Source: Fibrobacteria bacterium (GTDB taxonomy: Bacteria; Fibrobacterota; Fibrobacteria; UBA11236). From it: a stretch of 64,000 bases of DNA. Location: assembly GCA_043766615.1 (NCBI GenBank), contig JAYUHW010000039.1, positions 12,449 to 76,448 on the forward strand, read 5' to 3'. The notes below the pieces were generated by a model. That model made no database searches, had not been told where the DNA came from, and worked only from the letters and a program-made list of their open reading frames with translations. This document shows, in pieces, positions 13,928-63,581 of this stretch. The stretch's first letter is position 1. Every line of letters begins with the position of its first letter. Position numbers and translations under genes: made by a program.

Positions 13928-13937
13928 AGCATAGCCT

Positions 13938-35329: not shown

Positions 35330-35388
35330 ATTAAGATTCGTGTCCAGAAAATCCCATATCACTGATGAGGAAAAGAAAGACTGAAAGC

Positions 35389-44072: not shown

Positions 44073-45131
44073 ATGAATGCGGTTCTTAAACGACAATTCG
44101 CAAGCCTAGTTTGGCGATTGGGTTTAATATCGGTCGCGGGTAGGATCCGAAGGGCCATCCGAGGACCACGTCTTATTGTGCTTTGTTACCATCGCATCGA
44201 TGCCAATGCATCCCTACCCGCACACTCGGCTTCTCCTGAAGCTTTTATGGAGCAGGTGAAATGGTTTGTCCATCGATTTAAAATCCTAAGCCTAGATGAT
44301 GTTTCTGGATATTTGAAAAAAAGGCTGGCCTTGCCAGGAGATTGCATCTCGCTTACTTTCGATGATGGCTATTCGGACAATTACACAACTGTGATGCCTA
44401 TTATCACACGTTTAAAATTGCCCGTTGCCTTTTTCATTTCCACGGATCCTTTACTCCGCAGAATACCTTACTGGTACGATATCCTTTGGTCACGACTCAG
44501 GAATTGGACCGGCCAGGAGCTACCGGGCACTTACCAGGGCAGATTACCAAACCATTTAAAAACGGCTTTGTACTGGGCGGTCAAGAATCCTACTAAGCTT
44601 GGCAAGCAAAAAGTTCTCAATATCGCCAAAGGCTTGAACGTATCAGAGCGAAAGCAATTACTGGACGGCTTGGAAAAAGTGCAGCGACTGGGTACCATGG
44701 ATCCGGTCTGTGAAACGATGTCGATTCAGGAAGCCAGACATGCTCTTGCACTCGGATTGATTATCGGTGGTCATACGCGCAGTCATCCTTCTCTGGCTCG
44801 GGTTTCCCCAGAAGAATGTCGGGCTGAGATCATGAATGCCTTGCAAGATTTAGCCGCTCAAGGATTTTCTCCGCGATATTTTGCCTATCCCTTTGGGGAG
44901 TCCGTAGATGTGGGCGGACTAGAGGGTTATCCTCGTCGGGTCTTAATGGAAATTCAAGGACAGAAGAGTAACGAAGGGAAAAAGATCCAAGGCGTAGAGC
45001 TCGCCTTGACTACTGAGGAGCGGGCGATTCGCCCGGGAGATGATCCGTTCTTGGTGCCTCGGAAAGTAATAACCCCGCAAAGCTTGGGACAGATTGCCCT
45101 AAAACTGGAAATGCTGGCATGGCGGAAATGA
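44073..45131 (+). CDS. CE4 (NodB-type) polysaccharide deacetylase
   Basis: Motifs TFDDGY, HTRSH, FAYPFG. Confidence 0.85.
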   Translation: MNAVLKRQFASLVWRLGLISVAGRIRRAIRGPRLIVLCYHRIDANASLPAHSASPEAFMEQVKWFVHRFKILSLDDVSGYLKKRLALPGDCISLTFDDGYSDNYTTVMPIITRLKLPVAFFISTDPLLRRIPYWYDILWSRLRNWTGQELPGTYQGRLPNHLKTALYWAVKNPTKLGKQKVLNIAKGLNVSERKQLLDGLEKVQRLGTMDPVCETMSIQEARHALALGLIIGGHTRSHPSLARVSPEECRAEIMNALQDLAAQGFSPRYFAYPFGESVDVGGLEGYPRRVLMEIQGQKSNEGKKIQGVELALTTEERAIRPGDDPFLVPRKVITPQSLGQIALKLEMLAWRK

Positions 45132-46378
45132 TTGCCTACCTTATCCATTCCTTTCCGCAATTCTCAAGCACATTCATAAATGATGAAGTAGACGAGATGC
45201 GCAGGCAGGGTGAGAAAATAGTCCTTTTTGCCGTGCAACGTCCGAGTTCTAAAGAGTACCCGCCGGATTTTAAACGCTTCGTGGATGAAACAACCTATAT
45301 CTTTCCCATTTCTAAATGGCTATTGCTTCAAAGGCATGGGCAAGCTCTTCTATGTAAACCAGTCTGTTACCTCCGGTGTTTACTGTGGATTTTGATCAAG
45401 CCGGAACTGAAGTTTCGCAACCGAATCCGAACCTTGTTTCATTTTGCTGAAGCCATTTATCTGTATCCGGAAATTCGGTTGCGCGGGTGTAAACACATCC
45501 ATGTGCATTTCCTTTTTGGCGGGGCGTCCATTGCGTATTTCATCCAAAGAATGCATGGAATGACCTATAGTGTTACTGCCCATGGCAGCGATATTTTCGT
45601 GGATAGGCTATTGCAATCGGAAAAACTGGAACAGTCCCGATTCATCCGTGTCTCCACGCGCTATAATGCCGGCTTCTTGCAGCCTCTGATGTCACCGGAA
45701 CGCCGGCAGCGACTTCAAGTGATTCCCTTTGGAATCGATAGGAGCAAGATCCCGGCCCTCGTCAAAATTCCGTCCCTTGCCTTCCATAGCTTGGTTGCCC
45801 AAGCTGAAAATGAATCAGAACCTAAAGTGCCATTGCGGCTGCTGAGTGTGGGACGCCTAATCTGGCAAAAGGCTCAGCATTTGCTCTTGGAGGCTTGCGC
45901 AGAAATTGCCAATCAAGGCTATGATTTTCATCTTCGATTGGTGGGTGAGGGGCCATTGCGGGCCGCTCTTGAAAAACAGCTTGTGGACTTGGGCCTGGAG
46001 GCTAAAGTGACTTTGGTTGGAGCCTTGCCCCAGGATGCAGTTTGGCTGGAATATCGCAAAGCCGACCTCTTTATTCTTTCCAGCATTAGTGAGGGTTCGC
46101 CCTTTGTGATTATGGAAGCCAAGGCCTGCGGATTACCCGTAATTGCCCCCGATTTGCATGGAATTCCGGAAATGATTGAGGATGGGGTGGATGGCCGGCT
46201 TTTTAAGACGGGATCTTCCAAAAATTTATCCAGGAGGATGTTGGAATTGATCAGAAATGAAACGCTTCGGCAACGAATTGGAACCACCGCAGAAATTTCA
46301 GCTGGGCAAATTGATCTCACCCGATCCGTAAATCGATTTCGGCAATTATTCCAGGACTTTCCTCAGGTCATTGGATAA
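45119..46378 (+). CDS. GT4-family glycosyltransferase
   Basis: EX7E motif EGSPFVIMEAKACGLPVIA. 13-nt overlap with upstream gene. Confidence 0.85.
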   Translation: MAEMIAYLIHSFPQFSSTFINDEVDEMRRQGEKIVLFAVQRPSSKEYPPDFKRFVDETTYIFPISKWLLLQRHGQALLCKPVCYLRCLLWILIKPELKFRNRIRTLFHFAEAIYLYPEIRLRGCKHIHVHFLFGGASIAYFIQRMHGMTYSVTAHGSDIFVDRLLQSEKLEQSRFIRVSTRYNAGFLQPLMSPERRQRLQVIPFGIDRSKIPALVKIPSLAFHSLVAQAENESEPKVPLRLLSVGRLIWQKAQHLLLEACAEIANQGYDFHLRLVGEGPLRAALEKQLVDLGLEAKVTLVGALPQDAVWLEYRKADLFILSSISEGSPFVIMEAKACGLPVIAPDLHGIPEMIEDGVDGRLFKTGSSKNLSRRMLELIRNETLRQRIGTTAEISAGQIDLTRSVNRFRQLFQDFPQVIG

Positions 46379-46403
46379 GGTTTAGGAAGCATAGGTCAGT
46401 GTT

Positions 46404-47561
46404 TTGAAACTTTTTTTCATCGTGGACAATAACGAGCCACATGCCGGGGCGGGTGGATTCTATGCCATCTATAAATTCGCCGAATTTCTGGCTCATCGTG
46501 GCCATAGCGTTTGTATCTCAGGTGTTCACGACCTAGGCTGGGTCAAGCCGGGTCCGAACTTGAAACTTAAGTTTCGGCCCAGTCTACCTCGGAAAAAACT
46601 CCTAATCGCAAAACTAGATCGGATCCTTTCACGGATATGCGATCGTTGGTGGCTGACTTTGAATATCAGACGGTTTCAACCAGAATGGATTGTAGGAGTA
46701 TTGACTTATTCCGCGATTAAGGCCGAAGCCTTAGGGCGAAATTTCCAAATCCCCGTTGCCAACTTTATTTATGAATGTCCTCCTTGGCTACAGGAGATAT
46801 GGGGAGCAAGGTACATCAGCGAAAACTCGAATCCTTTTACGATCAAGCTATGGGAGAATACGCGAAGCGCCTATTTAGGATCACGAGTTCTCTTCCCTAA
46901 TTCAGGATTATCACGGCACTATAATTCAAAGTGGCTGCAAGGTAAGGGTGTGGCCGAACCTATTCATCCAGGGATTGATCCCGAACAAATGCCCTTTCAA
47001 CCACCCGAAATGGAACCTCTAAAACTGGATCCGGAGCGCAAGCATTTGCTCTTTGTGGGGCGTCTGGTGGACAGCAAAAATGTCCATGACCTCATTGCCG
47101 CTTTCCATCGCCTGGAAACGTCTAACGTAGATCTCCATATCTGCGGCACAGGCCCTGAATTGGAACGCTTAAAAACCTTGGCTTACGGATCCAATCACAT
47201 TCACTTCCATGGTTTTGTAGCTGATCCCATCCTCTGGAGTTTGTTCCGCCAATGTCACATCGTGGTTTATCCAACCGGCTTTGAAGGCTTTGGTATGCCG
47301 CCCATGCAAGCACTGTATTTCGCCAAGCCGTGTATCGCCACCGATCTTGCCATCTTCCAAAGCGTCTTCGGAGACCGGCTGGAATATTTTCCCTTAGGCG
47401 CGATCGAGGCTTTAGCGAGTCGTATAGACCACTTGCTGCTTGATCCCGTTTATTGCCGGAAGCGCGGTGATGCAGGACGAAAATTTATCCTTGAAAATTT
47501 TACCTGGGACATTGCTGCCCAAAGAATTGAACAAAAACTTTTGGAGGCTAGTCATGATTGA
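46404..47561 (+). CDS. GT4-family glycosyltransferase (EX7E second Glu replaced by Gln)
   Basis: EGFGMPPMQALYFAKPCIATD. Confidence 0.8.
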   Translation: MKLFFIVDNNEPHAGAGGFYAIYKFAEFLAHRGHSVCISGVHDLGWVKPGPNLKLKFRPSLPRKKLLIAKLDRILSRICDRWWLTLNIRRFQPEWIVGVLTYSAIKAEALGRNFQIPVANFIYECPPWLQEIWGARYISENSNPFTIKLWENTRSAYLGSRVLFPNSGLSRHYNSKWLQGKGVAEPIHPGIDPEQMPFQPPEMEPLKLDPERKHLLFVGRLVDSKNVHDLIAAFHRLETSNVDLHICGTGPELERLKTLAYGSNHIHFHGFVADPILWSLFRQCHIVVYPTGFEGFGMPPMQALYFAKPCIATDLAIFQSVFGDRLEYFPLGAIEALASRIDHLLLDPVYCRKRGDAGRKFILENFTWDIAAQRIEQKLLEASHD

Positions 47562-48813
47562 ATCCACCGAGGCGATAAAAACATCAAAGCCGGATCTAAG
47601 GGTCCCAGCTCCCGTTACCTCGTCCCCGATCGCCGCTCCAATCACAAAATCCAATGACCGTAAATTGCGCGTGGCCGTGGTCGGAACCGTTGGGTTACCG
47701 GCCCGTTACGGAGGTTTTGAAACTTTAGCGCATTACTTGGTTGAACACTTGGGAAGCGAATTCGATTTTATCGTTTATTGCAGCGGTCCGGATTACAAGG
47801 AACGACCTAAGGATTTCTTGGGCGCGCGGTTGGTCTACTTGCCCCTGCGTGCCAATGGAGCCCAAAGTATTCCTTTCGATATCTTAAACTATATTCACGC
47901 CCTAAAAAATTGCGACTTGCTGCTTGTCTTGGGCGTATCCGGTGGATTGGCATTACCCTTGGTGCGGCTGCTTGGGAAGCCGAGTATTCTAAATATCGGT
48001 GGAATGGAATGGCAACGCAGCAAATGGGGGCGCTGGGCCAGTAGGTTCTTGCATTTATCCGAGGCTGTAGCGGTGCGTGCCGCTTCGGTTGTGGTTTCCG
48101 ATAACCAAGGTATTACCCATCACTTGAAAACCGCATATAAACGGTCCAGCACTTTAATTGAATATGGCGGAGACCAAACCACGAAACCTGAGATTACTCA
48201 AGGACTGATCAAAAAGTATCCCTTCCTCAGTCGTCCCTATGCTTTTGCTGTGGCTCGTATTCAATCCGATAATAATCCTGAACTTCTGCTTTATGCCTAT
48301 AATCAGGTTCCCGAAGTGGAGTTTGTTTTTATTGGAAATTGGAACCGTTCGGAATATGGTCGTGAATTGAAGAAGCATTACGAGGTTTTTCCGAATCTAC
48401 ATCTGCTTGAAGCCATTTATGATCCCGTGGAATTGAATGTTATTCGTGCCAATTGCGCCTATTATGTCCACGGGCATTCGGCAGGGGGAACAAATCCGGC
48501 ATTGGTCGAGGCTATGAACCTTTCCTTGCCCATTGCTTCCTACGACGTGGTCTACAATCGCGCTACTACGGAAAACCGAGTCAAGTATTTTCGGAATGTG
48601 GCTACTCTGGTGGAGTTGATACTCCAAGTCCCGCAATCGGAATGGGATAATCAGCGGGAAGTGGTAAAGGACATCGCCCATCGACGTTACCGGTGGGCAG
48701 GTATTTCCGGAAAATATGCCGAGCTTTTCAGAAAGTTCGATCCTAGGCCAAAGCTTGGAGCCGTCTCCGAGATAACGAAATCGGATGCGGCCGCTATGGA
48801 GATTACCAGGTAA
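47554..48813 (+). CDS. GT-B fold glycosyltransferase (DUF1972-type N-terminus)
   Basis: Start set at ATG 47554 preceded by GGAGG and overlapping upstream stop. KLRVAVVGTVGLPARYGGFETL N-terminal Rossmann-like. Confidence 0.75.
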   Translation: MIESTEAIKTSKPDLRVPAPVTSSPIAAPITKSNDRKLRVAVVGTVGLPARYGGFETLAHYLVEHLGSEFDFIVYCSGPDYKERPKDFLGARLVYLPLRANGAQSIPFDILNYIHALKNCDLLLVLGVSGGLALPLVRLLGKPSILNIGGMEWQRSKWGRWASRFLHLSEAVAVRAASVVVSDNQGITHHLKTAYKRSSTLIEYGGDQTTKPEITQGLIKKYPFLSRPYAFAVARIQSDNNPELLLYAYNQVPEVEFVFIGNWNRSEYGRELKKHYEVFPNLHLLEAIYDPVELNVIRANCAYYVHGHSAGGTNPALVEAMNLSLPIASYDVVYNRATTENRVKYFRNVATLVELILQVPQSEWDNQREVVKDIAHRRYRWAGISGKYAELFRKFDPRPKLGAVSEITKSDAAAMEITR

Positions 48814-48815
48814 TA

Positions 48816-50306
48816 GTGGCTGTTCGGGTTGGTAATCTCCTAGGCCATTCGGCCATTTACATGGCTGCAAACTTTCTCCAAAGGGGACTGTCGTTTTTAC
48901 TTATACCCCTTTACGCTGCCTACTTTTCCACGGCTGAATTCGGAGCCATGGATATGCTGTATCAAATGGCTATTGCTTTGGCTTTGCTAACCTCCTTTGG
49001 TCTGCCTCAAGGCTTAGTGCGTGGGTTCTATTTGGCGGGCGAATCAAAAGATCAAGATTCCGTGGACACCCAGATGCCTCTTGAGGAGCGTCGGAAATTA
49101 TTGGGCGCCTTAATTACCTTTCTGCTGCCAATCAGCCTGGTTTGCACGGGGGCTTTAGTTCTTTTTGCCGAACCGCTTTCTCATTTGCTATTTCAGAGTG
49201 AAGGCAGGTCCCAGTGGATAAGGCTAACAGCATTATTATACCTAGCCTTAGTGATGCAAGGCTTACCCCTCCAGCTTTACAAAACGGAGCAGAAGTCTCG
49301 AGCCTTTGCAGCTTGGTCCTTGACCGCGTTTAGTTTGATTGCCTTGGGGAACCTTTATTTCATTGTCGTTTTGAAAATGGGATTGCCGGGCATGCTGCTT
49401 GGGAATCTTTTGGGAGTTGGAGGCACAGCCCTGATCCTATCCCTATTGATATTGCCCAAGGCTCACTTGAATTGGGACTGGAAACGCTTGGCTCCACTTT
49501 TCGCATTTGGATTACCCATGCTTCCTAATTTGCTCAGCCGGAAAATTTTAGAAGTTGGCAATCGATATATGATTCCTCATTGGCATGGATTGTCGGAAGT
49601 AGGGATGTTTTCCATGGGGGCTAGGGTATCGAGTATTATGGATATCCTCCTGCTCGTTCCCTTTCTTTATGCCTGGCAACCTTTTTTCTATTCCTTGGCA
49701 GGAAAAGCCGATTCACCCAAAATTTTCGCTCGCGTTACCCATTATTTCTTTTTGCTTTTAACCGGAATATTTTTGGGCATGCAAGTTTTTCAGACGGCGA
49801 TCCTCCACTTTCTGGGTCGGGGAAGATATGATGAGGCAGGCCCGGTGGTTTCGCTATTGGTTCTGGCTGCCATGTTGAATGGAATCCAATATTGCGTATC
49901 AGCGGGAATCCATTTGCGCAAAAAATTGGTGACGGAAATGTGGCTCATGGCCGGGATTGCGACCGTCAACATTATGCTTAATCTTTTGCTCATTCCCAGG
50001 TTTGGCGCTCAAGGCGCCGCCGCCGCGACTGCCACGGCCTTTGGTTTTTTTCTGATCGGATCTTTTATTACCGCCCAACGAGTTTATCCCGTGCCCTATT
50101 TATGGCATCGAAGCGTTCCGATTTTTTTGTGGGCGGTTTGTGCCTATGCCGCTTTGCTGGTAATTCATTCTCTTTTGATCCGCGTTTGCCTTGTTTTGAG
50201 TTTTGCCATTGTTGGACCGATTTGGGATCTTAAGCGAAATGGCGAATTGAGTATGGCATGGAAGTTTGTTCTTGAAAAAATAGTTCGGATTCGGGCCGGT
50301 TCCTGA
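48816..50306 (+). CDS. Wzx-type oligosaccharide flippase (polysaccharide biosynthesis protein family)
   Basis: About 14 predicted TM helices. Typical Wzx N-terminus. 48816 is a GTG. Alternative ATG at about 48861. Confidence 0.75.
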   Translation: MAVRVGNLLGHSAIYMAANFLQRGLSFLLIPLYAAYFSTAEFGAMDMLYQMAIALALLTSFGLPQGLVRGFYLAGESKDQDSVDTQMPLEERRKLLGALITFLLPISLVCTGALVLFAEPLSHLLFQSEGRSQWIRLTALLYLALVMQGLPLQLYKTEQKSRAFAAWSLTAFSLIALGNLYFIVVLKMGLPGMLLGNLLGVGGTALILSLLILPKAHLNWDWKRLAPLFAFGLPMLPNLLSRKILEVGNRYMIPHWHGLSEVGMFSMGARVSSIMDILLLVPFLYAWQPFFYSLAGKADSPKIFARVTHYFFLLLTGIFLGMQVFQTAILHFLGRGRYDEAGPVVSLLVLAAMLNGIQYCVSAGIHLRKKLVTEMWLMAGIATVNIMLNLLLIPRFGAQGAAAATATAFGFFLIGSFITAQRVYPVPYLWHRSVPIFLWAVCAYAALLVIHSLLIRVCLVLSFAIVGPIWDLKRNGELSMAWKFVLEKIVRIRAGS

Positions 50307-50806: not shown

Positions 50807-52135
50807 TCAATAATTGGAGATTTTCTGGAATGCCTCGATGCTATAAACCTTGAGCCGCCCCTGCTGCACGAAGGTATCCACATAGGCCAAAAGCTCTTCC
50901 CAATCGGCGCGATACCATTTGTTGGAATCTAATAAGCCGCTAGCGACAATTTCGTGGACGCCAATGATACTGGCCATCCGGTTGTTCACCAAATTGAGAA
51001 TGACACTCTTAGCCATATCCAGGGTCACCCCGTTTTGTAGAAAACCAAGAACTCGTAGTCGATAAGGATCGGAAAAAGGAAGTGCTTCCCCTTCCGGCCA
51101 ACCCACTACCAAACGGGCCGTTTGGGCATTCAGTTTGACAATGGAGTCCTTGGCTAGGTCGCTTTTTCCGTAGGGGTAAGCGAAATGTCTGAAACCCGTG
51201 AATCCATTGCACTGCAGGAACCCGGCATTTCTTTTCATGGAGCGATCGGCTGAATCATTGGTCAAGCTAGTGATACTGTCATGGGTCCATAGATGGCTCC
51301 CAATAGTCCAGCCTCCACTATCTTGCAAAACTTTCAGCCTTGCCATGCCCATTTTATTAACGGCTCCTACCGAACTGCCGTTCACATAAATGTTCCCTGA
51401 AAAACCATACCTACGCATAGCTGGAACGCCATTGGTGTCGAAGTTGGCCCATTGATCATCTTCAGTAATGAAGAGCACTGCCGGCGGCAGTGGGGAAGGA
51501 TAAAAACCGAGCTCACCAAAAATCAAAGTATCATTTAATCCAGGTTTTGCGCTTAACCCAATCCGAATGCGCGAGACGGAATGGCAATCAAAACCGGGTG
51601 TGGAATTGAAAACGCGAACCGCCAGGTTTACCCGGGACCAATGTCCAGTATCAAAGAGTTGCGGGTTTCTGACCTGGTGGTGGATGGTATAAATGGCATT
51701 GTCTTCCAGTCGGATACCGCTGATGAGTTGAATTCCGAAAACTTGGACCGAAGCAAGATTCGCCATGTTGGGGGCCCAAAATTTAAGTGAGAGATTCGCA
51801 TCACTGCAAACGTTTTCGGGCGGTTCCAGAGCCTTTTCAAGGTAAGTTGTGGAATAATTGTCGCCGATTACCCTAAGCGCTTTCGGAGCCATCAGATAGT
51901 GGGCTGAATCCGATTCCAGGAGTCCGCTCCCATAAACCCTATTCCATTCAGTATTAATTGGCTTATTGAAATACGAGCGGACGTGATAGCCGACAATTCC
52001 TTTATCCTCTGGCCTAGTGGGGAGAAAATCATCCGGAAAAATATTCGGTTCCAAACAGGAAATATTGGCAAACGGACCCTGTTTAAATGCCATTACGAGC
52101 AAAAGGCCAATTAAAAAATTTGGACGAATTTTCAT
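50807..52135 (-). CDS. secreted two-domain protein: unknown N-terminal domain + CE4 deacetylase domain with TEDD variant of motif 1
   Basis: Signal peptide from ATG 52135. TEDDQW (vs TFDDG), HLWTH, FAYPYG motifs. Confidence 0.7.
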   Translation of the reverse strand: MKIRPNFLIGLLLVMAFKQGPFANISCLEPNIFPDDFLPTRPEDKGIVGYHVRSYFNKPINTEWNRVYGSGLLESDSAHYLMAPKALRVIGDNYSTTYLEKALEPPENVCSDANLSLKFWAPNMANLASVQVFGIQLISGIRLEDNAIYTIHHQVRNPQLFDTGHWSRVNLAVRVFNSTPGFDCHSVSRIRIGLSAKPGLNDTLIFGELGFYPSPLPPAVLFITEDDQWANFDTNGVPAMRRYGFSGNIYVNGSSVGAVNKMGMARLKVLQDSGGWTIGSHLWTHDSITSLTNDSADRSMKRNAGFLQCNGFTGFRHFAYPYGKSDLAKDSIVKLNAQTARLVVGWPEGEALPFSDPYRLRVLGFLQNGVTLDMAKSVILNLVNNRMASIIGVHEIVASGLLDSNKWYRADWEELLAYVDTFVQQGRLKVYSIEAFQKISNY

Positions 52136-52229
52136 AATTCTCTTAGGGTGTAAGTCATGAAAGGATTGCGACCCAAAAAACAACTGCTATAAACTAGTTC
52201 TGCTAGAACTTTTTATTGTTACAGGTGTG

Positions 52230-53600
52230 TTACCGGGATGATTCAAGGAATTCTTCTAGGCTATAAACCTTGACTTTATCCTGTTCGACCAAGGTCTGTA
52301 TATAATCCATCAAGGCTTCCCAATCCGCTTTATACCATTTCCGTCCATTTAAGGAGCCTCCGGTGACAATTTGGTGAACACCAATAATACCGGCTGTGCG
52401 GTTGTCGACCATTAGCTTGACTGCTCCTTTAGCCATCTCCAAGCTAACACCCTCTCCAAGAAAACCTAGAACACGCAGTCGGTAAGGATCGGAGAAAGGC
52501 ACGACATCACCGGCCGGCCATCCAGTGGTTAAGCGGGCGGTTTTGGTATGCATCCGCACGATTGAATCCTTGGCTCGATCGCTTCTGCCATATGGATAGG
52601 CGAAATGTTGATAGCCGGTGAATCCATTCCTGCGCAGAAATTCAGCATTCATCATCAAAGAACGTTCGGCGGAGTCATCGGTTAGGGCCGTAATACTGTC
52701 ATGAATCCAGAGATGGCTTCCAATAGTCCAACCCCCGCTGTCTTGCAGGGTCTTTAAGCGTCCCAAGTTCATTTTATTGTAAACGCCCAAGAGTCCGGCA
52801 TTCGCATAAACGGTTCCCTTGAAGCCATATTTTCGCATCGCCGGGATCGCATTGGTATCGAAGTCGGCCCATTGATCGTCTTCGGTTATGATCAAGGCTG
52901 CCTTGGCTAAGGGAGAAGGATATACAGCCAGTTCACCTAAAATGAGAGTGTCTTCAAGTCCGTTCAAGGCGCTTAGTCGTATGCGTATCCGCTTTACGGA
53001 ATTGCAGTCGAAAGTCGAGGAGATATTGAAGGCGCGAATGGCTTGATTGATGCGTGTCCAGTGCCCGGCATCAGTCAGTTGTGAATTCCGAACCTGATGT
53101 TGATAAGCATATGTCGCGCTATCCTTTAAGTCCTTACCTCCAATTAAGGTCAGTGAAAAAAGCTGAACATTGGTCAGGTTAGCTTGTGACTCGGCCCAGA
53201 ATTTAAAGGAGATATTCGCATCCCCGCACACATTTTCCGGCTTTTGAAAATTCTTTTCTATGCTATTCGATGGGTTATTTGTTCCTATGATCCGCACAGC
53301 CATTGGTGCTTGAAGAAACCGGTTCGATTCTGGTTCCAAATATCCGGATCCATAAACCATTTTCCATTCCGTTCCAATGCCCTTATTGAAATACGAGAGA
53401 ACGCGGTAGCCCTCGGTTGCACTGTCTTCGGCTAATACGGGAAGGATTTCATCTTGGGAACTTTGTTCATGAATACATGAATTCAGGATGGGTGATACCG
53501 CCAAGACCATCCCGAAAATCAGAATTCTTGCGGAGAACTCCGGTTTCCTTATGAGGTAGCAATCGACTAACTGCAAGAGCCGCGGTGCGTGATCGGTCAT
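52230..53600 (-). CDS. tandem paralog of 50807..52135 (unknown N-domain + CE4-like domain, TEDD variant)
   Basis: Collinear motifs with 50807..52135 (TEDDQWADFD, HLWIHDSITAL, FAYPYGRSD). 4-nt overlap with upstream gene. Confidence 0.7.
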   Translation of the reverse strand: MTDHAPRLLQLVDCYLIRKPEFSARILIFGMVLAVSPILNSCIHEQSSQDEILPVLAEDSATEGYRVLSYFNKGIGTEWKMVYGSGYLEPESNRFLQAPMAVRIIGTNNPSNSIEKNFQKPENVCGDANISFKFWAESQANLTNVQLFSLTLIGGKDLKDSATYAYQHQVRNSQLTDAGHWTRINQAIRAFNISSTFDCNSVKRIRIRLSALNGLEDTLILGELAVYPSPLAKAALIITEDDQWADFDTNAIPAMRKYGFKGTVYANAGLLGVYNKMNLGRLKTLQDSGGWTIGSHLWIHDSITALTDDSAERSLMMNAEFLRRNGFTGYQHFAYPYGRSDRAKDSIVRMHTKTARLTTGWPAGDVVPFSDPYRLRVLGFLGEGVSLEMAKGAVKLMVDNRTAGIIGVHQIVTGGSLNGRKWYKADWEALMDYIQTLVEQDKVKVYSLEEFLESSR

Positions 53601-55708
53601 TTGGGTGCAATGCGCAACAGCAACAATTGCCCGCCCGGCCCAGGCTTGGTTCCCTCTGGCAGGTTTTGCAATCCGGCGGCATTTTCACTGGTTATACTTC
53701 GGGCCTGAACGTTTAGTAACCATGTCCCGATTCCTAATTGATTTGATCCATCGATGAGGCCCTTGACCTCCCATTGGGTCTTGAGACCTGGTCTTAAAGT
53801 CCCAATGGAACTAGGCGCATCTACGACAGCTAATTTATCCAGCTTCCGGGCCTCCAAATTGAGCATCCAAATTGCAGGTGGACGAAGAATAGAAGCGGAT
53901 GGTTTTTCACAAATCACCATATTTCTTGTTTTTCCAATGGCGATTTTTCCAGGGTTGGTGAAACCGGTAATGGAATCGCCCGTTGCCAGAATCTCCAAGC
54001 GAGGCCCTTCGCCTTCGAGGGCGTTTTTTGGATCGAATGACAATTTGTAAATCCTTCCAAAGCGATTTTGTGAAGCCGACCCATTACCGGTGCTGGAGAA
54101 ATAGAAGGCCCCTTTTTGACTTGGGTCATAGGCGCCTTCCGCAAGCGATTCAAAGTTGAAGGAAGTGTCCTTGCCGTCTGCGCTTACCGTGCTCCAACCA
54201 TTTAGTGTAGCGGTAGAAATGTCGGCCAGTGAAAAAGGGGCATCCGGTCTGTTCCGGAGCAGGTCTACCCAGTGTCCCTGAAGTGTGCCCGAATTGAATT
54301 CAGCCTCGTTATGTTTGCCCGAGGCAGCGAAGACATAAAGCTTTCCTCCTGCCAAACCATTTTCATAAAGGGGATCCGGGGAGCGCATGTCACGTAACTT
54401 ACGTCCAATATAGAGGTAAAGTCGGCCTCTACCCGATTGGGTCTGCTCTAGCGCCATAACAACCGTTTGATTGGAATCCTGAGTCGGCACTACGGTAAGG
54501 CTCTGAAATGCCAGTTTACCGAAATCGGACAAGATAAACGCTTTATCGCCAACAATACCCAAGGTCTGCGCACCTGATGATGAAAAGTTAGATGAGGAGG
54601 AGGACGATTCTCCGGTTAAATAAATGGGTAAAGTTATACCCTCCTCCGGTCCAGCCAGAAAACCAGGACTCAAGCGATTGAAAAATCCAGGAGTAGCACT
54701 AAAGTTACCAAGAGCATGGACGGACTCGAAAGCGAAGCGACCGGAAACGATCCGATCCGTGGCCCTATCAATGGTATATTCCGAGACATAGGCACCTTTT
54801 TTGGTAGGTCCAGCGACTAAGGCATTAATTGAATCCTGGGAGCTGATTTCATGACTCATGAATAGACGGGCAGTTTGACTATCGCGAGTAGTCAAACCCA
54901 AACCATTGGGCATTCCACCCATGCGAAAGCCTTGCAAAAAATTGTCCGTCATCGGCACGCTTTCCCCCACAGTCAATAGCGGCGTAATGGCAACACCGGG
55001 TTCAACAGCTTTTAAATAAGCGGAATCATCGGTTGTCCAAGAAGTCAAACTATCTGAAGTCATTACCATGCTTGGGATGGTGTCATCCTCAACTACGACT
55101 ACTTGTTGGATGGTCCGGAACCCAATTTTGGAAATCACCAACGTATCAATAGTGGTTGCAGCCACTTTTGCAATCTGATCCAAGGGCAAGGGAACAAGTC
55201 TAAGCGGGGTCCGGTCGGTCTTTTTTCCAAAGTATGGGATTCTATGATAGTACGAGAGAGAACCGATTTGTAAACGGATACCGTAAACACCAATATGCAG
55301 TTCGTGCCGCAAACTCGACAATGGAGCGAGCCCGTAAAGACCGCGCTTTAAGTCCTCATCAACCACTCTTCCCAGTTCGTGGCCAGTGAAATCGAAAACG
55401 GTAATGCGAACGCGAGCGTGGATGGTCAAAACGTGAAACGCTAGTTTTTGCCCATCCGACTGGAACATGTCTTCTGCACGAATCTTTCTTTCCACTGAAC
55501 GACTCATGAGCTGGTATCTACCATGATCATCCGTACTAGTTGCAAAGCCATCTTGTTTAAGCTGTACGCTCACGTTTGACATTGGGTGCCCGGTGAGATC
55601 AACTATCTTGCCCACAATGCGCGAGGAAATTTTAGCGGGTTCGGAACCTAAGACGAATGACTGAATGCAGGCGGAAAGGAGTAGAAAAAAAAAGACTCTT
55701 AAATTCAT
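53597..55708 (-). CDS. secreted protein: carboxypeptidase-regulatory-like N-terminal domain + PhoX/DUF839-like region
   Basis: Signal peptide. IVGKIVDLTGHPMSNVSVQL…TDDHGRYQL (CarbopepD_reg-like). GRIYKLSF and ICEKPSAS-type motifs reminiscent of DUF839. Confidence 0.5.
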   Translation of the reverse strand: MNLRVFFFLLLSACIQSFVLGSEPAKISSRIVGKIVDLTGHPMSNVSVQLKQDGFATSTDDHGRYQLMSRSVERKIRAEDMFQSDGQKLAFHVLTIHARVRITVFDFTGHELGRVVDEDLKRGLYGLAPLSSLRHELHIGVYGIRLQIGSLSYYHRIPYFGKKTDRTPLRLVPLPLDQIAKVAATTIDTLVISKIGFRTIQQVVVVEDDTIPSMVMTSDSLTSWTTDDSAYLKAVEPGVAITPLLTVGESVPMTDNFLQGFRMGGMPNGLGLTTRDSQTARLFMSHEISSQDSINALVAGPTKKGAYVSEYTIDRATDRIVSGRFAFESVHALGNFSATPGFFNRLSPGFLAGPEEGITLPIYLTGESSSSSSNFSSSGAQTLGIVGDKAFILSDFGKLAFQSLTVVPTQDSNQTVVMALEQTQSGRGRLYLYIGRKLRDMRSPDPLYENGLAGGKLYVFAASGKHNEAEFNSGTLQGHWVDLLRNRPDAPFSLADISTATLNGWSTVSADGKDTSFNFESLAEGAYDPSQKGAFYFSSTGNGSASQNRFGRIYKLSFDPKNALEGEGPRLEILATGDSITGFTNPGKIAIGKTRNMVICEKPSASILRPPAIWMLNLEARKLDKLAVVDAPSSIGTLRPGLKTQWEVKGLIDGSNQLGIGTWLLNVQARSITSENAAGLQNLPEGTKPGPGGQLLLLRIAPK

Positions 55709-55791
55709 ATTACAAATCTCAGTTTAGAGAAAGTTTTTTTAATAAAAATTCCAAATCTATTAACTCAGCCATGAAAACAGCACAAAGGGTA

Positions 55792-56391
55792 TTACTTCGC
55801 ATCTTTTCCACCGCCTTTATGATCCTGGAAGCCCCAAATTTTGCAGCCTTCTGAGGACTCATAAATACTCCCAATGAAGGATATTTTCTCCATGAAGTGG
55901 GATGCGGGACCCCTGACCAAAATTTCAATATCACGGAGAATTTTACCGCCTCCGTCCATTTCCACTGGAGGGGTGTTTGATTTCCAGGAAATCAGTTCCA
56001 GGCTTTTACCCCCATATTTTTCCAGGCTTCGATAAAGCAATTTTCCATTGTCCATGTAATAAAATTCACGCATGAAATTCAATTGGACTTCACTGGCGTT
56101 TTTTCCTTCAGGTAATTTCTTATAGAGCGTGATCAGTTGTTCAGGGTTTGGCCCCATTAGGATCAAACCAAGGGTATCTTGAATATTGAGCCGTGCTACG
56201 GCATTTCGTAAAAGTTGATCAGGTGAATGCGCAATCCTGCCTAGGCTGGGGATGCTGTCTTCGAGAATGGCAGGGGCCAAAGGGCGGCTAGGTTTTGCCC
56301 AGACGCTTTCGGCCGAAAGAATTGACAAGACAAATAGGCAGCTTGAAAGGGGAAAAGCTCTAAAAAATTTACAGATAATTTCTTTTGACAT
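55792..56391 (-). CDS. secreted hypothetical protein
   Basis: Start at MSKEIICKFFRAFPLSSCLFVLSILSAESVWA signal peptide. No recognisable motifs. Confidence 0.5.
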   Translation of the reverse strand: MSKEIICKFFRAFPLSSCLFVLSILSAESVWAKPSRPLAPAILEDSIPSLGRIAHSPDQLLRNAVARLNIQDTLGLILMGPNPEQLITLYKKLPEGKNASEVQLNFMREFYYMDNGKLLYRSLEKYGGKSLELISWKSNTPPVEMDGGGKILRDIEILVRGPASHFMEKISFIGSIYESSEGCKIWGFQDHKGGGKDAK

Positions 56392-56426
56392 TTTCCAATA
56401 AATCCTTTCAAGCCAATTCATTCGAT

Positions 56427-59400
56427 TTAATTCCCAGTGCTAAAGACTACACGGGCAGAGCGGGACATTTTACCGTTGGATAGGCGCACGATATGGACTC
56501 CGTGCAAATTACCCATGGCAATGGAATTTTGTCCTTGCTTCAGATTCACTTCACGAGTACCCATGAAATGGCCTGACACACTCCAGATGGCTATTTTGAC
56601 CGATCCAAAACCTGAAGATTGGATGACCAAGTTCTGGCCATGGCTCGCAAAGACATGAATACCATTAAAGTCGCGAAGCGGAATGGCAATAGCCACGGGC
56701 ATTGACTTGATTACCACGACCAGTTCCGATTTTGTCTCCTTGGGATCCCGGCTATTTTTGTCCTTCGCTCTTGCGACATAAGTATAAGTTCCCGCAGCTT
56801 TTCCAGTAAGTGGAACCGTCAGGGTTCCATTTGTGCTCGTCCCCAAAACCACTCCATTAAGTGTGATTTGAATGGTATCGATTCCGTCTTGATCCGAGGC
56901 TAAGGCAACTAGACTGAAGGAACTAGGCGCATAAAGCGTGTCTGCGCCACCGCGGATGAAGCTCATAGTGGGCGCGATATTGGGAGCAGCGGCATTTACA
57001 TTTACCACCAAGGAATCGATTTTTACTAAAGGATCATTGATGTGTTTATCCTTGGCCCTGACAATATAAGTATAAGTGCCAGCGTCTAAGTTAGCCACGG
57101 GGACGACCAAATTAATCGAAGTGCCGGTGGCTAGTACTTTACCGTTCAAGAGAACTTGCAAGGAATCAATTCCATCCACATCCTCAGCGTTTGCCAATAA
57201 CTGAAAGTTGGCAGGTCCGATTAAAGTTTCCGCACCAGTGCGTATGAGCGTGACCTTGGGAGCAATATTAGCGGCTGCAGCATTCACGGTTACTATCAAG
57301 GTTTTGGTGGTCACCTTCGGATCCGTTGCATGCTTATCCTTTGCGCGGACAGTATAGGTATAAACGCCCGCAACCATCTTAGTAATTGGGACTACCAAGC
57401 TAACTGATGAGCCGCTGGCTACTACTTTGCCGTCCAAAAGAACTTGCAAGGTATCAATTCCATCCGCATCATCTGCACTGGCAACCAAGGTGAAATTGGC
57501 TGGACCGACTAGGCTATCGTTCGAGGCTAATTTCAAATCCACAGTAGGCCCTGAAGCGTTCACTAGGGCTGGAGGATCAAAGACTGTCACGGTGAGTACT
57601 TGCGTCACGGTTTTAGGGTCCGTGGCATGATTATCCGTGGCTTTAACCGTATAAGTATAGGTACCGGGCACTTTGCCGGAGATGGATACTGCAAGGCTAC
57701 CAGTATTGGATCCGCCCAAAACCGTCGTGCCTTCTAAGATCTGCAAGCTGGCAATGGCGCCATCCGGATCCGAAGCAGTGGCATTGAGGGTAAAGCCTGC
57801 TGGCGCTATGAGTGTTTCGCCAGTGCGGGTTAGGTTAACGATCGGAGCTTTATTCGGCGGAGGTACTTCAACAGAGACGATCAAGTCCTTCGAGGAGGTT
57901 TTAGGTTCGGTGGCATGGTTATCCGTCGCCTTAACCGTATAGGTATGATTACCTGCCGTTACGCCTGAAACAGGTACCGAAAGACTTCCGGTAACCGAGT
58001 TGCCCAGTACAGTTGATCCCTCAAGGATTTGTAAATTGGAAATGACTCCATCGGAATCTGAAGCTGTGGCATTGAGGGTAAAGCCTGCGGGAGCTACTAG
58101 AATAGTTTCACCGATTCGACTTAAGTTAACTACTGGAGCTTTATTAGGAGGGGGTGCTTGAACAACCACGATTAATTCTTTTGAGGAAGTTTTTTGATCC
58201 GCGTTGATATCCTTGGCTTGAACCTTATAGGTATAAATGCCTTGAGCTAGGTTTGTGACGTTAACGCCTAAGCTTCCAGTGGCATTTGAACCCAAAATCG
58301 TGCTGCCTTGAAGAATTTCCAAAGTAGCGATGCCATCCAAATCAGAGGCCGTTGCATTGAGTGTGAAGCTAGCTGGGGCAACGAGGTTATCACTTCCGGT
58401 GCGGGTTAAGTCTACCGTTGGGGCGGGATTGGCCACTACGACAACAAGATTTTGGGTTTGGGTTAAAGGATTAAGGGGATGCTTATCCTTGGCGCGCACC
58501 GTATAGGTAATTGACCCGGAGGCGGCATTGGTTACATCAAAGGAAACCGAACCCGTGGTGCTGGATGCCAGAACGGTTACTCCTTGGAGGATCTCTAAAT
58601 TTGCGATTCCTTCTGGATCCGTAGCGGTAGCGTTCAAGGTGAAGGACGCTGGTGCGCTAAGGTCGGCGCCAGTGCGAGTCAGAGTGACTACAGGTGCTCC
58701 TGCATTAGGTGGAACAGGATCGTCGCCAAGGGGGAAGTCCATAGTGCCGTCAAGGGTCCAACCCTTGTACCAGAGATCCCCATCCACGATTGCACCGGCC
58801 TTGGCTGCAATAATATCTGGATTCGAGGGTGAAAGGTCTTTGTAAAGGCCGAAGCTATGCGTAGTTGCATAGGGATAATTCTTGATCTTGGCATTCATTA
58901 CGTCCTTAACCAAATTGACTTGATTCAACGAGTCTGTACCTTTGGCGCTAAGCCCAGCGAATTCATATTGCTTTTTCCAATTGCCGGTTAAGAAAACGTC
59001 TTTTAATTCCAATGCGGGCGTAGGTGCGGTAATATTGGCCGCGGTTAAATCACCCTGGATCCGGAAACCCCAGCCGGAGGCGCTGTCTAATTTTGCGCCA
59101 CCGGCCACGATGACCATTTTCTCATAGGTTCCGGCGCATTGCTCTTTTAAGTCAACCGCACCATCATATCCACCATTGTCGATCAAGGTGAGATGCGACC
59201 AATGCAGGTTTGACAAAGGTCGGAGATCGGATTGGGAGCTACTGCATTCTATTACGAAATCACCTACGGGTTCAAAGGGCAAGGTGCTGCCGGGTTGTCT
59301 TGGTCTGGGAGCTTCCGTCCTTTGAATGCCAATCATATAATCGATAGTGCCGCTATATCCATGATCGATATCAAAGTTATCATCCGTTTGCTGGGTCACG

Positions 59401-60056
59401 ACAAGGTGGTCGGCATTGACCGATCCTCCGAACCATTCAAAGCCATCGTCGTCGCCGCGATGGACCTGTACGTGGTGCATGACGGTCTTGCTACCAACGG
59501 CGCAAAGGGTGACACCGTTCAATTCGCGGTCCACGGCAATGGGGAAGCCCGGGCCGTCGAGTCGCACATAGGTCAAAACACCCGATGAGTCGTCATTCTT
59601 GTTATTACCGAACCGGGCCCAGCCTAGCGCTTCATACTGAAGGTTTCCACCTTGGTTGCTGATACCCTTGCCCAGGAGCACGATACCACCCCAGGTTCCA
59701 CGTTCGGATCCGATTTCTCCGCGAAAGGTGATGGGCTGGTCTTTAGTGCCGGCGGCGATAAGCCAGGCTCCGCGATCGACAAGCAAAGTCGCACGGTTGG
59801 CTGTACTGGCCTGGATGGTGGTGCCTGCCTCAATGGTCAAAGTAACGCCGGCCTTGACTATGGTATAACCATTCATGATCCAAAGCGTATCTTTGGATAA
59901 GAAAGTGTTTACGGCAATGGAATCGGCGGGAATGGTTCCCTCATGTGCTTTGACGGGGATATCTTTCATTGGGAGCGCCCAAGAAAGTCCAGCGCCAAGG
60001 CTAGCTGCAAAAGCTAGCGGCTGCAGGAGGGATTTAAGGAAATTTGATTTTTTCAT
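56427..60056 (-). CDS. giant secreted protein: N-terminal parallel beta-helix (lyase/adhesin-like) domain + 7 tandem Ig-like repeats + T9SS-type C-terminal sorting domain
   Basis: Start at MKKSNFLKSLL signal peptide (ATG 60056). Repeats of about 93 aa (…LTRTGxxxLxAPAxFTLNATAxDxDGIxxLxILxG…TYTYTVxAKDxH…). C-terminal VKIAIWSVSGHFMGTREVNLKQGQNSIAMGNLHGVHIVRLSNGK resembles Por/T9SS CTD. Confidence 0.85.
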   Translation of the reverse strand: MKKSNFLKSLLQPLAFAASLGAGLSWALPMKDIPVKAHEGTIPADSIAVNTFLSKDTLWIMNGYTIVKAGVTLTIEAGTTIQASTANRATLLVDRGAWLIAAGTKDQPITFRGEIGSERGTWGGIVLLGKGISNQGGNLQYEALGWARFGNNKNDDSSGVLTYVRLDGPGFPIAVDRELNGVTLCAVGSKTVMHHVQVHRGDDDGFEWFGGSVNADHLVVTQQTDDNFDIDHGYSGTIDYMIGIQRTEAPRPRQPGSTLPFEPVGDFVIECSSSQSDLRPLSNLHWSHLTLIDNGGYDGAVDLKEQCAGTYEKMVIVAGGAKLDSASGWGFRIQGDLTAANITAPTPALELKDVFLTGNWKKQYEFAGLSAKGTDSLNQVNLVKDVMNAKIKNYPYATTHSFGLYKDLSPSNPDIIAAKAGAIVDGDLWYKGWTLDGTMDFPLGDDPVPPNAGAPVVTLTRTGADLSAPASFTLNATATDPEGIANLEILQGVTVLASSTTGSVSFDVTNAASGSITYTVRAKDKHPLNPLTQTQNLVVVVANPAPTVDLTRTGSDNLVAPASFTLNATASDLDGIATLEILQGSTILGSNATGSLGVNVTNLAQGIYTYKVQAKDINADQKTSSKELIVVVQAPPPNKAPVVNLSRIGETILVAPAGFTLNATASDSDGVISNLQILEGSTVLGNSVTGSLSVPVSGVTAGNHTYTVKATDNHATEPKTSSKDLIVSVEVPPPNKAPIVNLTRTGETLIAPAGFTLNATASDPDGAIASLQILEGTTVLGGSNTGSLAVSISGKVPGTYTYTVKATDNHATDPKTVTQVLTVTVFDPPALVNASGPTVDLKLASNDSLVGPANFTLVASADDADGIDTLQVLLDGKVVASGSSVSLVVPITKMVAGVYTYTVRAKDKHATDPKVTTKTLIVTVNAAAANIAPKVTLIRTGAETLIGPANFQLLANAEDVDGIDSLQVLLNGKVLATGTSINLVVPVANLDAGTYTYIVRAKDKHINDPLVKIDSLVVNVNAAAPNIAPTMSFIRGGADTLYAPSSFSLVALASDQDGIDTIQITLNGVVLGTSTNGTLTVPLTGKAAGTYTYVARAKDKNSRDPKETKSELVVVIKSMPVAIAIPLRDFNGIHVFASHGQNLVIQSSGFGSVKIAIWSVSGHFMGTREVNLKQGQNSIAMGNLHGVHIVRLSNGKMSRSARVVFSTGN
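56710..58660 (-). repeat. seven tandem about 280-bp coding repeats (Ig-like domain array) inside 56427..60056
   Basis: Repeat units visible in translation. Boundaries approximate. Confidence 0.7.
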
Positions 60057-60197
60057 TGTGAAGGTCTCCCATTGTTTAATTTTAATTGAATTCAGTTCGG
60101 TCACTTGGGGCACACCATTGGGGCCCGCAAAATAGGGACTGAGAGATAGGAAGCCCGTGTTACCGTCAAGCCTATTAATTGTTTCAACCGCGTTCCA

Positions 60198-63100: not shown

Positions 63101-63581
63101 CACCTGCGACCAGCGATTCTAGCTCAATGGTCTTAGGCTCGTAACCTTTCCGGAATACGGAAAGGGTCCAGACGCCGGGGTCGATACCCATAATGCGATA
63201 TAGACCTCCTTCATCGGTATGCGCCGAAATCCGCAAAGAGTCCCGTTTAAGAACCACGGTAGCTTCGTCAATGGCTTTACCATCGTCGGAGCCAAGTACC
63301 ATGCCATGCAATACGGCGCGGCTTGCATTTACAATGTCCTTGGAGGCTATTCCCGGGCCAATAGATTTTTTCTCGTTACTGATGGACCTATTTGACGTAT
63401 CAGTTAAGCCTGTATCCTGTAGCCGAGAACCATGTGCCAGGGTATCTGCGATCAAAGAGTCTAGATTGAGAACCGGGACGAAGTTTCGATTGAAGAGGCT
63501 TTCCTGGGCTTCAGCTGGGAAGCTGAAGACTACTAGATATATAGAGTGAAGGTAAATAATGAGACTTAAGTTTCTTTTCAT
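60198..63581 (-). CDS. SusC/RagA-like TonB-dependent outer-membrane receptor with N-terminal carboxypeptidase-regulatory domain
   Basis: Start at MKRNLSLIIYLHSIYLVVFSFPAEA signal peptide. CarbopepD_reg-like segment (ATVVLKRDSL…TDEGGLYRI). Plug-domain motifs (YVYVRGLGERYTNMTLNGLPVPSPE). Long beta-barrel region. Confidence 0.8.
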   Translation of the reverse strand: MKRNLSLIIYLHSIYLVVFSFPAEAQESLFNRNFVPVLNLDSLIADTLAHGSRLQDTGLTDTSNRSISNEKKSIGPGIASKDIVNASRAVLHGMVLGSDDGKAIDEATVVLKRDSLRISAHTDEGGLYRIMGIDPGVWTLSVFRKGYEPKTIELESLVAGEDRVLEIQMDRRVLKGQVVQAISERKAGSSQDLLAKRQKSAAVMEGVSAEQIAKTTDSDAGAIARRVTGTSLVGGKYVYVRGLGERYTNMTLNGLPVPSPEKDKRVVPQDLFPAGTLESFAIYKTFVPELSPDFAGGSVALITKGIPEKAFLKVSLSSGDIYHGRVDTADYLIAYREESPKNGRAPKSLPAGWQVGNRRLTYDGGNTFWGFDDGTRSLPDGFPGVIPKGFSEAAAQDARSSGLPGFTPDERIQLANKLSNVYSIDTSRIKNPTNFSISVGNVYPAPGDGKFGYLATAGFKNKYDQNLVEKQDVNASYAFKNDTIFHPVLKRMVVNRVQLYDTVQTDSGPIITSVRILQPGTTALIDRGSYEAQLSGMLNMRYENPDWSVWWKNFAINIGTDQALLTNSYQASRGGGLIPQRSPYQERYLLQFNRRSLVCSQVGGEAYVGSGVVDSVTWAAGLSSVSGETPDSRQYLYSQGSVSVDQPLAFNNDDVWGTRIFESLNEKAAAARLDSYLIIPPEYSPRDTFLLENKIFSHLSLPTFGTGLAFNGRNRDFKATRYSYDADRRSLTGQALEEIRAPDALALDIQENVSDFATSPKDRDTYAASEIRAATYLAYAISARLWKMPIGMDGGLRGEWYDFNLHMPYTGGSEGQQDFDIKSREWNTYPSIGLWIQPIRPLKLRWQYAQTAVHPEIREMTLFAYTDYISGNTKVGNPDLTKTKIFHYDARADLYLPYEQSFSASIFYKDFSRPVETTVDINKIESYQNANGAYVKGVEFEAILNPSRLLEGLNLTTPWLKGFSVSGNFALMESEVRIQKDSSNSLQNTNFRRAMVGQAPYLINGSLTHEVEVGPFVFLNTVLFNKAGERIRKAGTGGVPDITEKPFASLESLHRFTFWKRNELSVRVKNWLLQSKEFRVKEYNDKLTYHTVTAEQYQKVFGDVSRYQTLEREQNGISIEINFSRQL

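Follow-up and report, generated by a model that had tools for sequence, protein, structure and literature searches.

Two adjacent minus-strand genes in a 64,000-nucleotide stretch of a Fibrobacteria bacterium contig (JAYUHW010000039.1, positions 12,449 to 76,448; hereafter the window) encode paralogous proteins, copy A and copy B, in which an export leader is followed by an N-terminal beta-sandwich and a C-terminal carbohydrate esterase family 4 (CE4) domain with TEDD in place of TFDD in the first catalytic motif. On balance we favour the interpretation that both proteins are extracytoplasmic, lipid-anchored deacetylases that edit the exopolysaccharide of their own cell. Both copies have the two domains, the core catalytic residues and the leader, both are under purifying selection, and the neighbourhood of the gene is conserved among relatives; from these observations we infer an activity, a substrate, an outer-membrane location and any role of the motif-1 Glu (E240). 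The features of the pair are listed here, and residue numbers in the text are those of copy B.

50807..52135, minus strand: copy A gene (protein P0002), 442 aa from ATG
52230..53600, minus strand: copy B gene (protein P0001), 456 aa; leader with lipobox, jelly-roll domain and CE4 domain
51491..52006, minus strand: copy A N-terminal beta-sandwich domain, aa 44-215, placed by alignment with copy B and the superfamily
52911..53426, minus strand: copy B N-terminal beta-sandwich domain, aa 59-230, from Foldseek and the AlphaFold model; galactose-binding-like, resembling a carbohydrate-binding module (CBM)
50810..51490, minus strand: copy A CE4 domain, aa 216-442; key residues the same as in copy B
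52233..52910, minus strand: copy B CE4 (NodB-fold) domain, aa 231-456, with D241/D242, H296/H300, AYPYG 334-338, R356 and H409
51449..51466, minus strand: copy A motif 1, TEDDQW, from the translation
52869..52886, minus strand: copy B motif 1, TEDDQW, from the translation

The tandem pair and its CE4 domain

A search of 5.8 billion proteins returned 17 full-length relatives, at 49-60% identity, from Fibrobacteria metagenome-assembled genomes or metagenome contigs, and when it was repeated with a family profile the same 17 scored at least 675 bits while the next match scored 49 bits. Among 185,579 species genomes scanned, the family was found in two, both Fibrobacteria. A scan of IMG/VR viral contigs with the family profile found no member, so we regard the family as cellular.

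Copies A and B are collinear and can be aligned over their full length with 56% identity and 70% positives (453 aa, E = 0; BLASTP), which confirms the tandem paralogs proposed by the initial annotation and adds the minus strand that it had left unstated; the blocks it quoted (TEDDQW, HLW(I/T)HD and FAYPYG, together with those of the N-terminal domain) were all found in the translations and the alignment. Copy A could alternatively start from a TTG at 52183, giving 458 aa, and the start of copy B shares 4 nt with the stop of the 703-aa gene upstream. The proposed comparison of nonsynonymous (dN) and synonymous (dS) divergence showed that synonymous sites are saturated between the copies (proportion of synonymous differences pS = 0.76; dN = 0.33), which leaves the whole-gene dN/dS without a value; the CE4 domain alone still permits an estimate of dS and gives a dN/dS of about 0.11. 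In a neighbour-joining tree the copies are weakly sister on long branches, and these, together with the saturated dS, indicate that the duplication is old. All 80 residues that are invariant in the 17-member alignment are retained in both copies, and the idea that one of them is a pseudogene was rejected on this ground. Judged from their sequences, the pair is an old tandem duplication in which both copies are under purifying selection. Copy A is a few percent more divergent than copy B from every relative, a promoter and terminator scan gave no signal separating the two, and each of the seven relatives with readable loci has a single copy of the gene.

Membership in CE4 stood up to a domain search and to structural comparison. 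Both copies matched PF01522 at aa 233-348 with 47.4 and 49.6 bits against a cutoff of 23.1, and the full-length AlphaFold2 model, with a predicted local distance difference test (pLDDT) score of 78, matched the solved CE4 enzymes SlCE4, CtCE4, BC1960, PdaC and ArCE4A in Foldseek with target template-modelling (TM) scores of 0.63-0.72. The only NCBIfam match of the copies was HfsH, at 26 bits against a cutoff of 400, and neither PgaB nor IcaB was matched. Invariant across the 17-member family are T239-E240-D241-D242, W244, H296, W298, H300, D301, A334-Y-P-Y-G338, R356 and H409; when the alignment was widened to 25 superfamily sequences including phage proteins, D241, D242, R356 and H409 remained invariant and H296 and H300 nearly so.

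Motif 1 keeps both Asp residues and has Glu for Phe, reading TEDD-[Q/E/A]-W throughout the family. A review of CE4 enzymes gives this motif as TFDD, with Tyr for Phe in a few cases, and describes it as highly conserved except in N-acetylmuramic acid deacetylases (PMC5855634). A full-text literature search for TEDD together with polysaccharide deacetylase gave nothing, so that no TEDD enzyme appears among the characterised members either in that search or in the review. The view that TEDD is a conserved, family-specific variant and not decay is upheld by its invariance in 17 of 17 members and by a dN far below the saturated dS. The Glu is, though, not confined to this family, since four phage-like sister clusters also have EDD. 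To judge from the alignments, the cellular family always has Glu in place of the Phe, its nearest relatives have it repeatedly without its being fixed in them, and characterised enzymes lack it.

Nor is the exchange of Phe for Glu the only change, as had been implied, since motif 2 lacks its Ser/Thr, motif 3 its Arg, and motif 5 has Gly for Leu. The Ser/Thr of motif 2 normally hydrogen-bonds to and stabilises the second metal-binding His. Here motif 2 reads H296-L-W-x-H300-D, with the two His at the canonical three-residue spacing and Leu for Ser/Thr in all 17 members. Motif 3, F-A-Y-P-Y-G, keeps the Pro and Tyr and departs from RxPY in having Ala334 where the base-tethering Arg is expected; the invariant R356, 22 residues downstream of motif 3, probably replaces that Arg, by analogy with other CE4 enzymes. 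No literal match to DxxD(W/Y) was found for motif 4, for which G360-W361-P-x-G-E/D365 and D371 are candidates within a loop of pLDDT below 50. Motif 5, I-I/L-G-V-H409-Q/E, contains an acid His that is invariant in the superfamily and has Gly407 where the Leu of the acetate pocket is expected. The copies thus belong to CE4 by fold, domain score and core catalytic residues and deviate from its consensus in four motifs out of five.

The initial annotation had called the proteins secreted. They are lipoproteins rather than merely secreted proteins, since most family members have a lipobox L-x-[GSA]-C, read from the 17-member alignment, in which its Cys is nearly invariant. The variants are LNSC in copy B and LGSC, LSAC, LSGC, LISC and LNAC among most relatives; the lipobox of copy A is degenerate (ANISC). 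A Cys pair in the N-terminal domain, C125 and C199, is invariant in the family as well as in its sister group, and would fit a disulfide and hence an oxidising, extracytoplasmic location.

The N-terminal domain and relatives of the two-domain module

Although the N-terminal domain had been described as unknown, its fold could be recognised from structure and from profile matches. AlphaFold gives a beta-sandwich for about 170 aa, at pLDDT 82-93 within the full model and 87 on average for the domain by itself, and a Foldseek search of the PDB placed the HFTV1 turret head protein's N-terminal domain at the top (E = 8e-9), followed by CBM11 (TM 0.61/0.67), CBM30/44, CBM8, CBM27, CBM22 and the CIA30 assembly factor (NDUFAF1). 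The homology search with this domain alone that had been recommended did find relatives: a profile of it matched 16 proteins among 1.84 billion representatives, namely the family's own representative, 11 two-domain proteins of 366-444 aa, a tandem double (P0034) and three giant proteins, in two of which Pfam calls the matching repeats CBM30 and one of which also has a GH16 domain. The domain is, as modelled, a galactose-binding-like jelly roll of the CBM11/CBM30/CIA30 fold group. P0034, of 815 aa and encoded on an ENA contig, consists of two tandem jelly-roll plus CE4 units, both with a canonical TFDDG, a build which indicates that the two-domain module duplicates as a unit.

With the full-length model, the best PDB match was 8QPG, the turret head protein (gp31) of Haloferax tailed virus 1 (HFTV1), with E = 2e-21 over 478 columns, the next matches lying near 1e-8. 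Residues 57-198 of this protein are described as galactose-binding-like and residues 199-413 as a deacetylase domain with a Zn site, and its authors propose that it binds and deacetylates host glycans (bioRxiv 10.1101/2024.12.09.627619). In it, as in copies A and B, the jelly roll precedes a CE4 domain that has a metal site, and the superfamily profile aligns both domains (E = 2.7e-12, positions 35-374); the 17-member family profile alone did not detect it. Unlike the Fibrobacteria proteins, it is an archaeal-viral capsid decoration, trimeric on a stalk, that is not a lipoprotein and has TIDD as motif 1. Among predicted viral structures (BFVD), both domains were matched by the 'esterase' of Arthrobacter phage Qui (4e-29), gp673 of Bacillus phage G (4e-28) and HFTV1 gp31 (2.5e-23), and tblastn against phage genomes matched phage G gp673 (4e-12), the 'glucosaminyl deacetylase' gp36 of Arthrobacter phage Gorpy and many minor tail proteins of Gordonia phages. 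The C-terminus of phage G gp673, the Qui protein, Gorpy gp36 and the Gordonia proteins likewise combine a jelly roll and CE4 with an AYPYG-type motif 3, a downstream Arg and the motif-5 His; they differ in having a canonical motif 1 (QFDDGW, TFDDS) and Thr in motif 2, in being phage-encoded and, for some, in being annotated as tail components.

The nearest sequence relatives of the N-terminal domain form a sister group of proteins (P0020-P0031, 425-444 aa, E = 1e-14 to 5e-5) that have the same architecture, the N-domain Cys pair and an H-L-W/Y-x-H-D-S/T motif 2. Their motif 1 is NEDDQW, NEDDEW, HEDDEW or HEDDQW in the four EDD clusters and otherwise TADDQW, TVDDQW, TSDDGR, TVDDGF, TNDDND or NWDDGY; the more distant members P0028, P0034, P0019, phage G and Gorpy have FDDG or FDDS. 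In contrast to the cellular family, the sister group varies at the Phe position (E, A, V, S, N, W), has a signal-peptide-like leader with no lipobox, ends in a conserved basic tail (GGGFxPxRRxGxGR) and occurs in a phage-like genomic context. Two of 11 sister proteins could be placed on contigs (L010 10001-11299 and L011 10001-11281), both phage-like, with dense small open reading frames (ORFs), NinG, Phage_gp49_66 and DUF5131; the label 'phage-like' refers to these Pfam matches and the gene layout and is provisional to that extent. The sister protein P0024 and its 922-aa neighbour had no tblastn match in phage records, the large genes around the sister-group loci matched neither PHROGs nor phage records, and IMG/VR scans with two sister-group proteins found nothing. 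PHROGs also gave no useful match for copies A and B, their neighbours or the genes of the phage-like contigs.

Among cellular enzymes, the poly-N-acetylglucosamine (PNAG) deacetylases of the PgaB/IcaB type resemble the copies in being extracytoplasmic CE4 enzymes that edit the cell's own exopolysaccharide (PgaB as an outer-membrane lipoprotein) and in having the Arg relocated downstream. They differ in their circularly permuted CE4 domain, in the C-terminal hydrolase-like domain of PgaB and its lack of an N-terminal jelly roll, in belonging to synthase-dependent and not Wzx-dependent pathways, and in matching weakly by sequence. PNAG deacetylases have four residues between the metal-binding His and a base-tethering Arg later in sequence than motif 3 (PMC5855634). 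Membership of the copies in this group was rejected, given three residues between the metal His and an unpermuted motif order of 1-2-3-(4)-5. The Bacillus anthracis proteins BA0330 and BA0331 are paralogous lipoproteins, about 55% identical, that combine a beta-sandwich with a CE4 domain and an Asp-His-His triad and show no deacetylase activity (PMC4505593). Together with BC0361 they are like copies A and B in being paralogous lipoproteins with an N-terminal beta-sandwich, CE4 and an Arg from a later strand, and unlike them in their Fn3-like N-terminal domain, in being experimentally inactive and in being Gram-positive proteins; the superfamily profile matches BA0330 (4v33) at E = 3e-10 and BC0361 (4hd5) at E = 1e-9, and both were also Foldseek matches. 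The best PDB sequence match of the CE4 domain was PplD of Streptococcus pyogenes (6DQ3; family profile E = 4e-6, superfamily profile E = 3e-14), which shares an AYPxG-type motif 3 and differs in being single-domain with TFDDS as motif 1. PplD presumably acts on a cell-wall polysaccharide linkage sugar.

The conserved neighbourhood and gene remnants

At eight of eight loci, namely the window and those of seven relatives, less than 5 kb separates the gene from the Wzx flippase and the DUF1972 glycosyltransferase of a GT4-rich cluster, and this synthesis cluster is the only neighbour common to all eight. The wider envelope-polysaccharide region of the window contains a WecA-like initiating transferase, a GT2, a methyltransferase, an acyltransferase, several GT4, Wzy, a Wzc-like protein and Wza, in addition to a canonical CE4, the DUF1972 glycosyltransferase and Wzx, with which copies A and B are convergent. 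The neighbouring features, including those discussed below, are as follows.

44073..50306, plus strand: polysaccharide-synthesis genes convergent with copy A (canonical-TFDD CE4, two GT4, DUF1972 glycosyltransferase, Wzx flippase); syntenic in relatives
53597..63659, minus strand: upstream genes on the same strand with short gaps (703-aa CarboxypepD_reg, 209-aa, 1228-aa Big_7 and 1153-aa CarboxypepD_reg+Plug proteins)
36817..37125, minus strand: pseudogene remnant of a third family member (tblastn and six-frame view)
L001 7849-9930, L012 7649-9706 and two JGI/ENA contigs, same strand as the CE4 gene: Hepar_II_III_C gene of relatives

The 1153-aa CarboxypepD_reg+Plug protein is TonB-dependent-receptor-like, and its gene starts the array that ends in copies B and A; the array and the pair are possibly one operon. 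The plus-strand CE4 gene at 44073-45131, which has canonical LTFDDGY, HTRSH and FAYPFG motifs and weak N-terminal similarity to PgaB/IcaB, occupies the same position in relatives. In four of the seven relatives a gene with a Hepar_II_III_C (lyase/epimerase-like) domain lies directly 5' of the CE4 lipoprotein gene on the same strand. Pairing of Hepar_II_III_C with a deacetylase is typical of polymer-processing enzymes. The window has no Hepar_II_III_C gene or remnant; a non-homologous 703-aa CarboxypepD_reg protein stands in that place, and it was rejected as a counterpart of the Hepar_II_III_C partner when BLASTP gave nothing. In the other three relatives (L003, L013, L014) the CE4 gene sits between an AMP-binding/GNAT pair and a set comprising an acyl carrier protein (ACP) gene and desaturases. 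The window has AMP-binding, GNAT-like and two fatty-acid-desaturase-like genes at 9638-14963 (minus strand), the set that flanks the CE4 gene in those relatives, where the ACP gene also belongs to it; the recurrence suggests that an acyl modification is tied to this polysaccharide system.

The third, decayed copy reported by the initial annotation is real, is a pseudogene, and is larger than the fragment first given at about 36780-36920. Residues 35-58, 53-114 and 302-324 of copy A were matched by tblastn at 37123-36841, and a chance match is excluded. The six-frame view showed two in-frame stops, at least two frameshifts and an internal deletion of about 190 codons that joins the N-terminal domain to the motif-3 region. 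The remnant is closer to copy A than to copy B, as in LQCNGFTGFR, with 74% identity in that stretch, and by this resemblance it is assigned to the copy-A lineage, as a younger duplicate of copy A that has since decayed. The accompanying suggestion that the family expands and contracts comes down to one ancient duplication, for expansion, and one pseudogene. Next to the remnant, an ORF at 37335-37640 (minus strand) is an inverted fragment of the GT4 glycosyltransferase gene at 35365-36699 (plus strand), with 52% identity over 63 aa; with the CE4 pseudogene and the GT4 fragment side by side, remnants of genes make up the patch at 36.7-37.84 kb.

Between Wzx and copy A, a 158-aa ORF (50325-50801, plus strand) matches the C-terminal half of methyltransferase domains only and is probably a truncated gene. 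Relatives have full-length methyltransferases, a GFO_IDH_MocA gene and a 290-aa gene, the latter two of which are not in the window. Elsewhere, GC content rises to 0.59 at 18001-20000, against about 0.47 in the remainder, over a di-haem cytochrome c peroxidase (CCP_MauG) gene (18024-20021, minus strand), and could reflect foreign origin.

Function of the two copies

As deacetylases of the cell's own polymer, copies A and B would be exported by a Sec/lipoprotein leader and tethered through the conserved Cys, presumably to the outer membrane. The N-terminal jelly roll, to go by its fold, would hold the glycan chain while the CE4 barrel, to go by its residues, would cleave off acetyl, or a different small acyl group, through the usual metal-assisted acid/base mechanism, with D242, H296 and H300 holding the metal, D241 as base and H409 as acid. 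R356 would supply the base-tethering Arg, as in PNAG deacetylases (PMC5855634) and BA0330 (PMC4505593). Strand geometry would put E240 on the same face as D242, pointing into the barrel one layer below this metal-binding Asp, where its carboxylate may, with low confidence, sit in the second shell and take over from the absent motif-2 Ser/Thr. The substrate would be the exopolysaccharide of the neighbouring Wzx/Wzy cluster, edited after flipping or polymerisation in the manner of PgaB, PelA and IcaB.

Several observations weigh against this interpretation. The pair is convergent with the synthesis genes and not co-transcribed with them, so that the link to them is by neighbourhood alone. None of motifs 2, 3, 4 and 5 conforms to the CE4 consensus, the loop at aa 357-383, where motif 4 is expected, is modelled at pLDDT below 50, and sister sequences with Ala or Val at the E240 position indicate that the role proposed for this residue is not obligatory. 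BA0330 and BA0331, similar lipoproteins with the full Asp-His-His triad, show no deacetylase activity (PMC4505593). In addition, the same-strand array with a TonB-dependent-receptor-like gene could point to uptake and catabolism.

The last point leads to an explanation that we consider rather unlikely, namely that the copies are catabolic surface enzymes, outer-membrane lipoproteins of a system resembling a polysaccharide utilization locus, which would deacetylate foreign glycans (chitin, acetylxylan, peptidoglycan fragments); in a further step of that account, to which we give the same low weight, the deacetylated glycans would then be cleaved and taken up by way of the nearby TonB-dependent receptor. 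CBM plus CE4 is a classic architecture of degradative enzymes, both copies end the array led by the CarboxypepD_reg+Plug receptor-like gene and continued by the Big_7 and 703-aa proteins, a receptor-like gene with 72% identity lies near the homolog in L001/L002, and Hepar_II_III_C, Beta_helix, Laminin_G_3 and CBM_6/GSDH proteins are among the neighbours in relatives. In L001, however, the receptor-like gene and the homolog are divergent, the 10-kb flanks of L003, L013, L014 and L012 lack it, no glycoside hydrolase was recognised next to the gene, and only the Wzx/DUF1972 synthesis cluster accompanies it at all eight loci. If the atypical state of motifs 2 to 5 is read instead as loss of catalysis, the copies would be pseudo-deacetylases, glycan-binding or structural lipoproteins that tether or organise the polysaccharide layer in the way that the Bacillus anthracis wall is stabilised by BA0330 and BA0331. 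These two proteins (55% identical, with the Arg from a later strand) are inactive, and their catalytic-Asp mutants still complement (PMC4505593); BA0330 (4v33) and BC0361 (4hd5), as noted, were matched by both the superfamily profile and Foldseek. We nevertheless think a non-catalytic role quite improbable, since a conservation of D241, D242, H296, H300, R356 and H409 that extends over Fibrobacteria, phage-like and phage proteins can hardly be accounted for unless the site is catalytic, the acid His, unlike that of BA0330, occupies its normal place in motif 5, and the site of the homologous HFTV1 protein holds Zn (bioRxiv 10.1101/2024.12.09.627619).

A viral origin with a role still related to viruses, either as a prophage tail or receptor-destroying enzyme or as a host-captured copy that edits the surface glycan to block phage adsorption, seems to us hardly credible. 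The best two-domain structural matches are indeed viral (HFTV1 turret head protein, Qui esterase, phage G gp673, HFTV1 gp31), the nearest sequence relatives of the N-terminal domain lie on phage-like contigs (NinG, Phage_gp49_66, DUF5131), and tblastn matched minor tail and glucosaminyl deacetylase genes of Gordonia and Arthrobacter phages. Yet there are no phage genes near the pair in the window or near the gene in the seven relatives, whose neighbours are cellular envelope genes; PHROGs and IMG/VR gave no match and no member, a lipoprotein leader stands in place of a virion-attachment N-terminus, and the position remains syntenic between genomes with orthologs of only 50-60% identity.

A more specific proposal is that the co-varying changes at the metal site (Glu for Phe, Leu for Ser/Thr, Asp after the second His, the relocated Arg and Gly for the pocket Leu) could define a CE4 subtype of different specificity that is exchanged between Fibrobacteria and their viruses. 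We hold this to be improbable, as we do the example specificities that might go with it, for acyl groups of more than acetyl size or for a sugar, aminated or acidic, in a polymer specific to Fibrobacteria. If it were true, the cell would edit its polymer with the same module that viruses use to attack that polymer.

The two-domain architecture is already known from viruses, and the present result is so far an annotation refinement within the polysaccharide deacetylase family. If active, copies A and B would be the first CE4 deacetylases with an acidic residue for the motif-1 Phe, and would add a lipoprotein-anchored member acting in a Wzx pathway to the few extracytoplasmic exopolysaccharide deacetylases (PgaB, IcaB, PelA, Agd3). 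Through the two-domain homology with the HFTV1 turret head and with phage tail and esterase proteins, a recently solved viral module gains a cellular counterpart, and the family of copies A and B offers a tractable case for the direction of module transfer between hosts and viruses.

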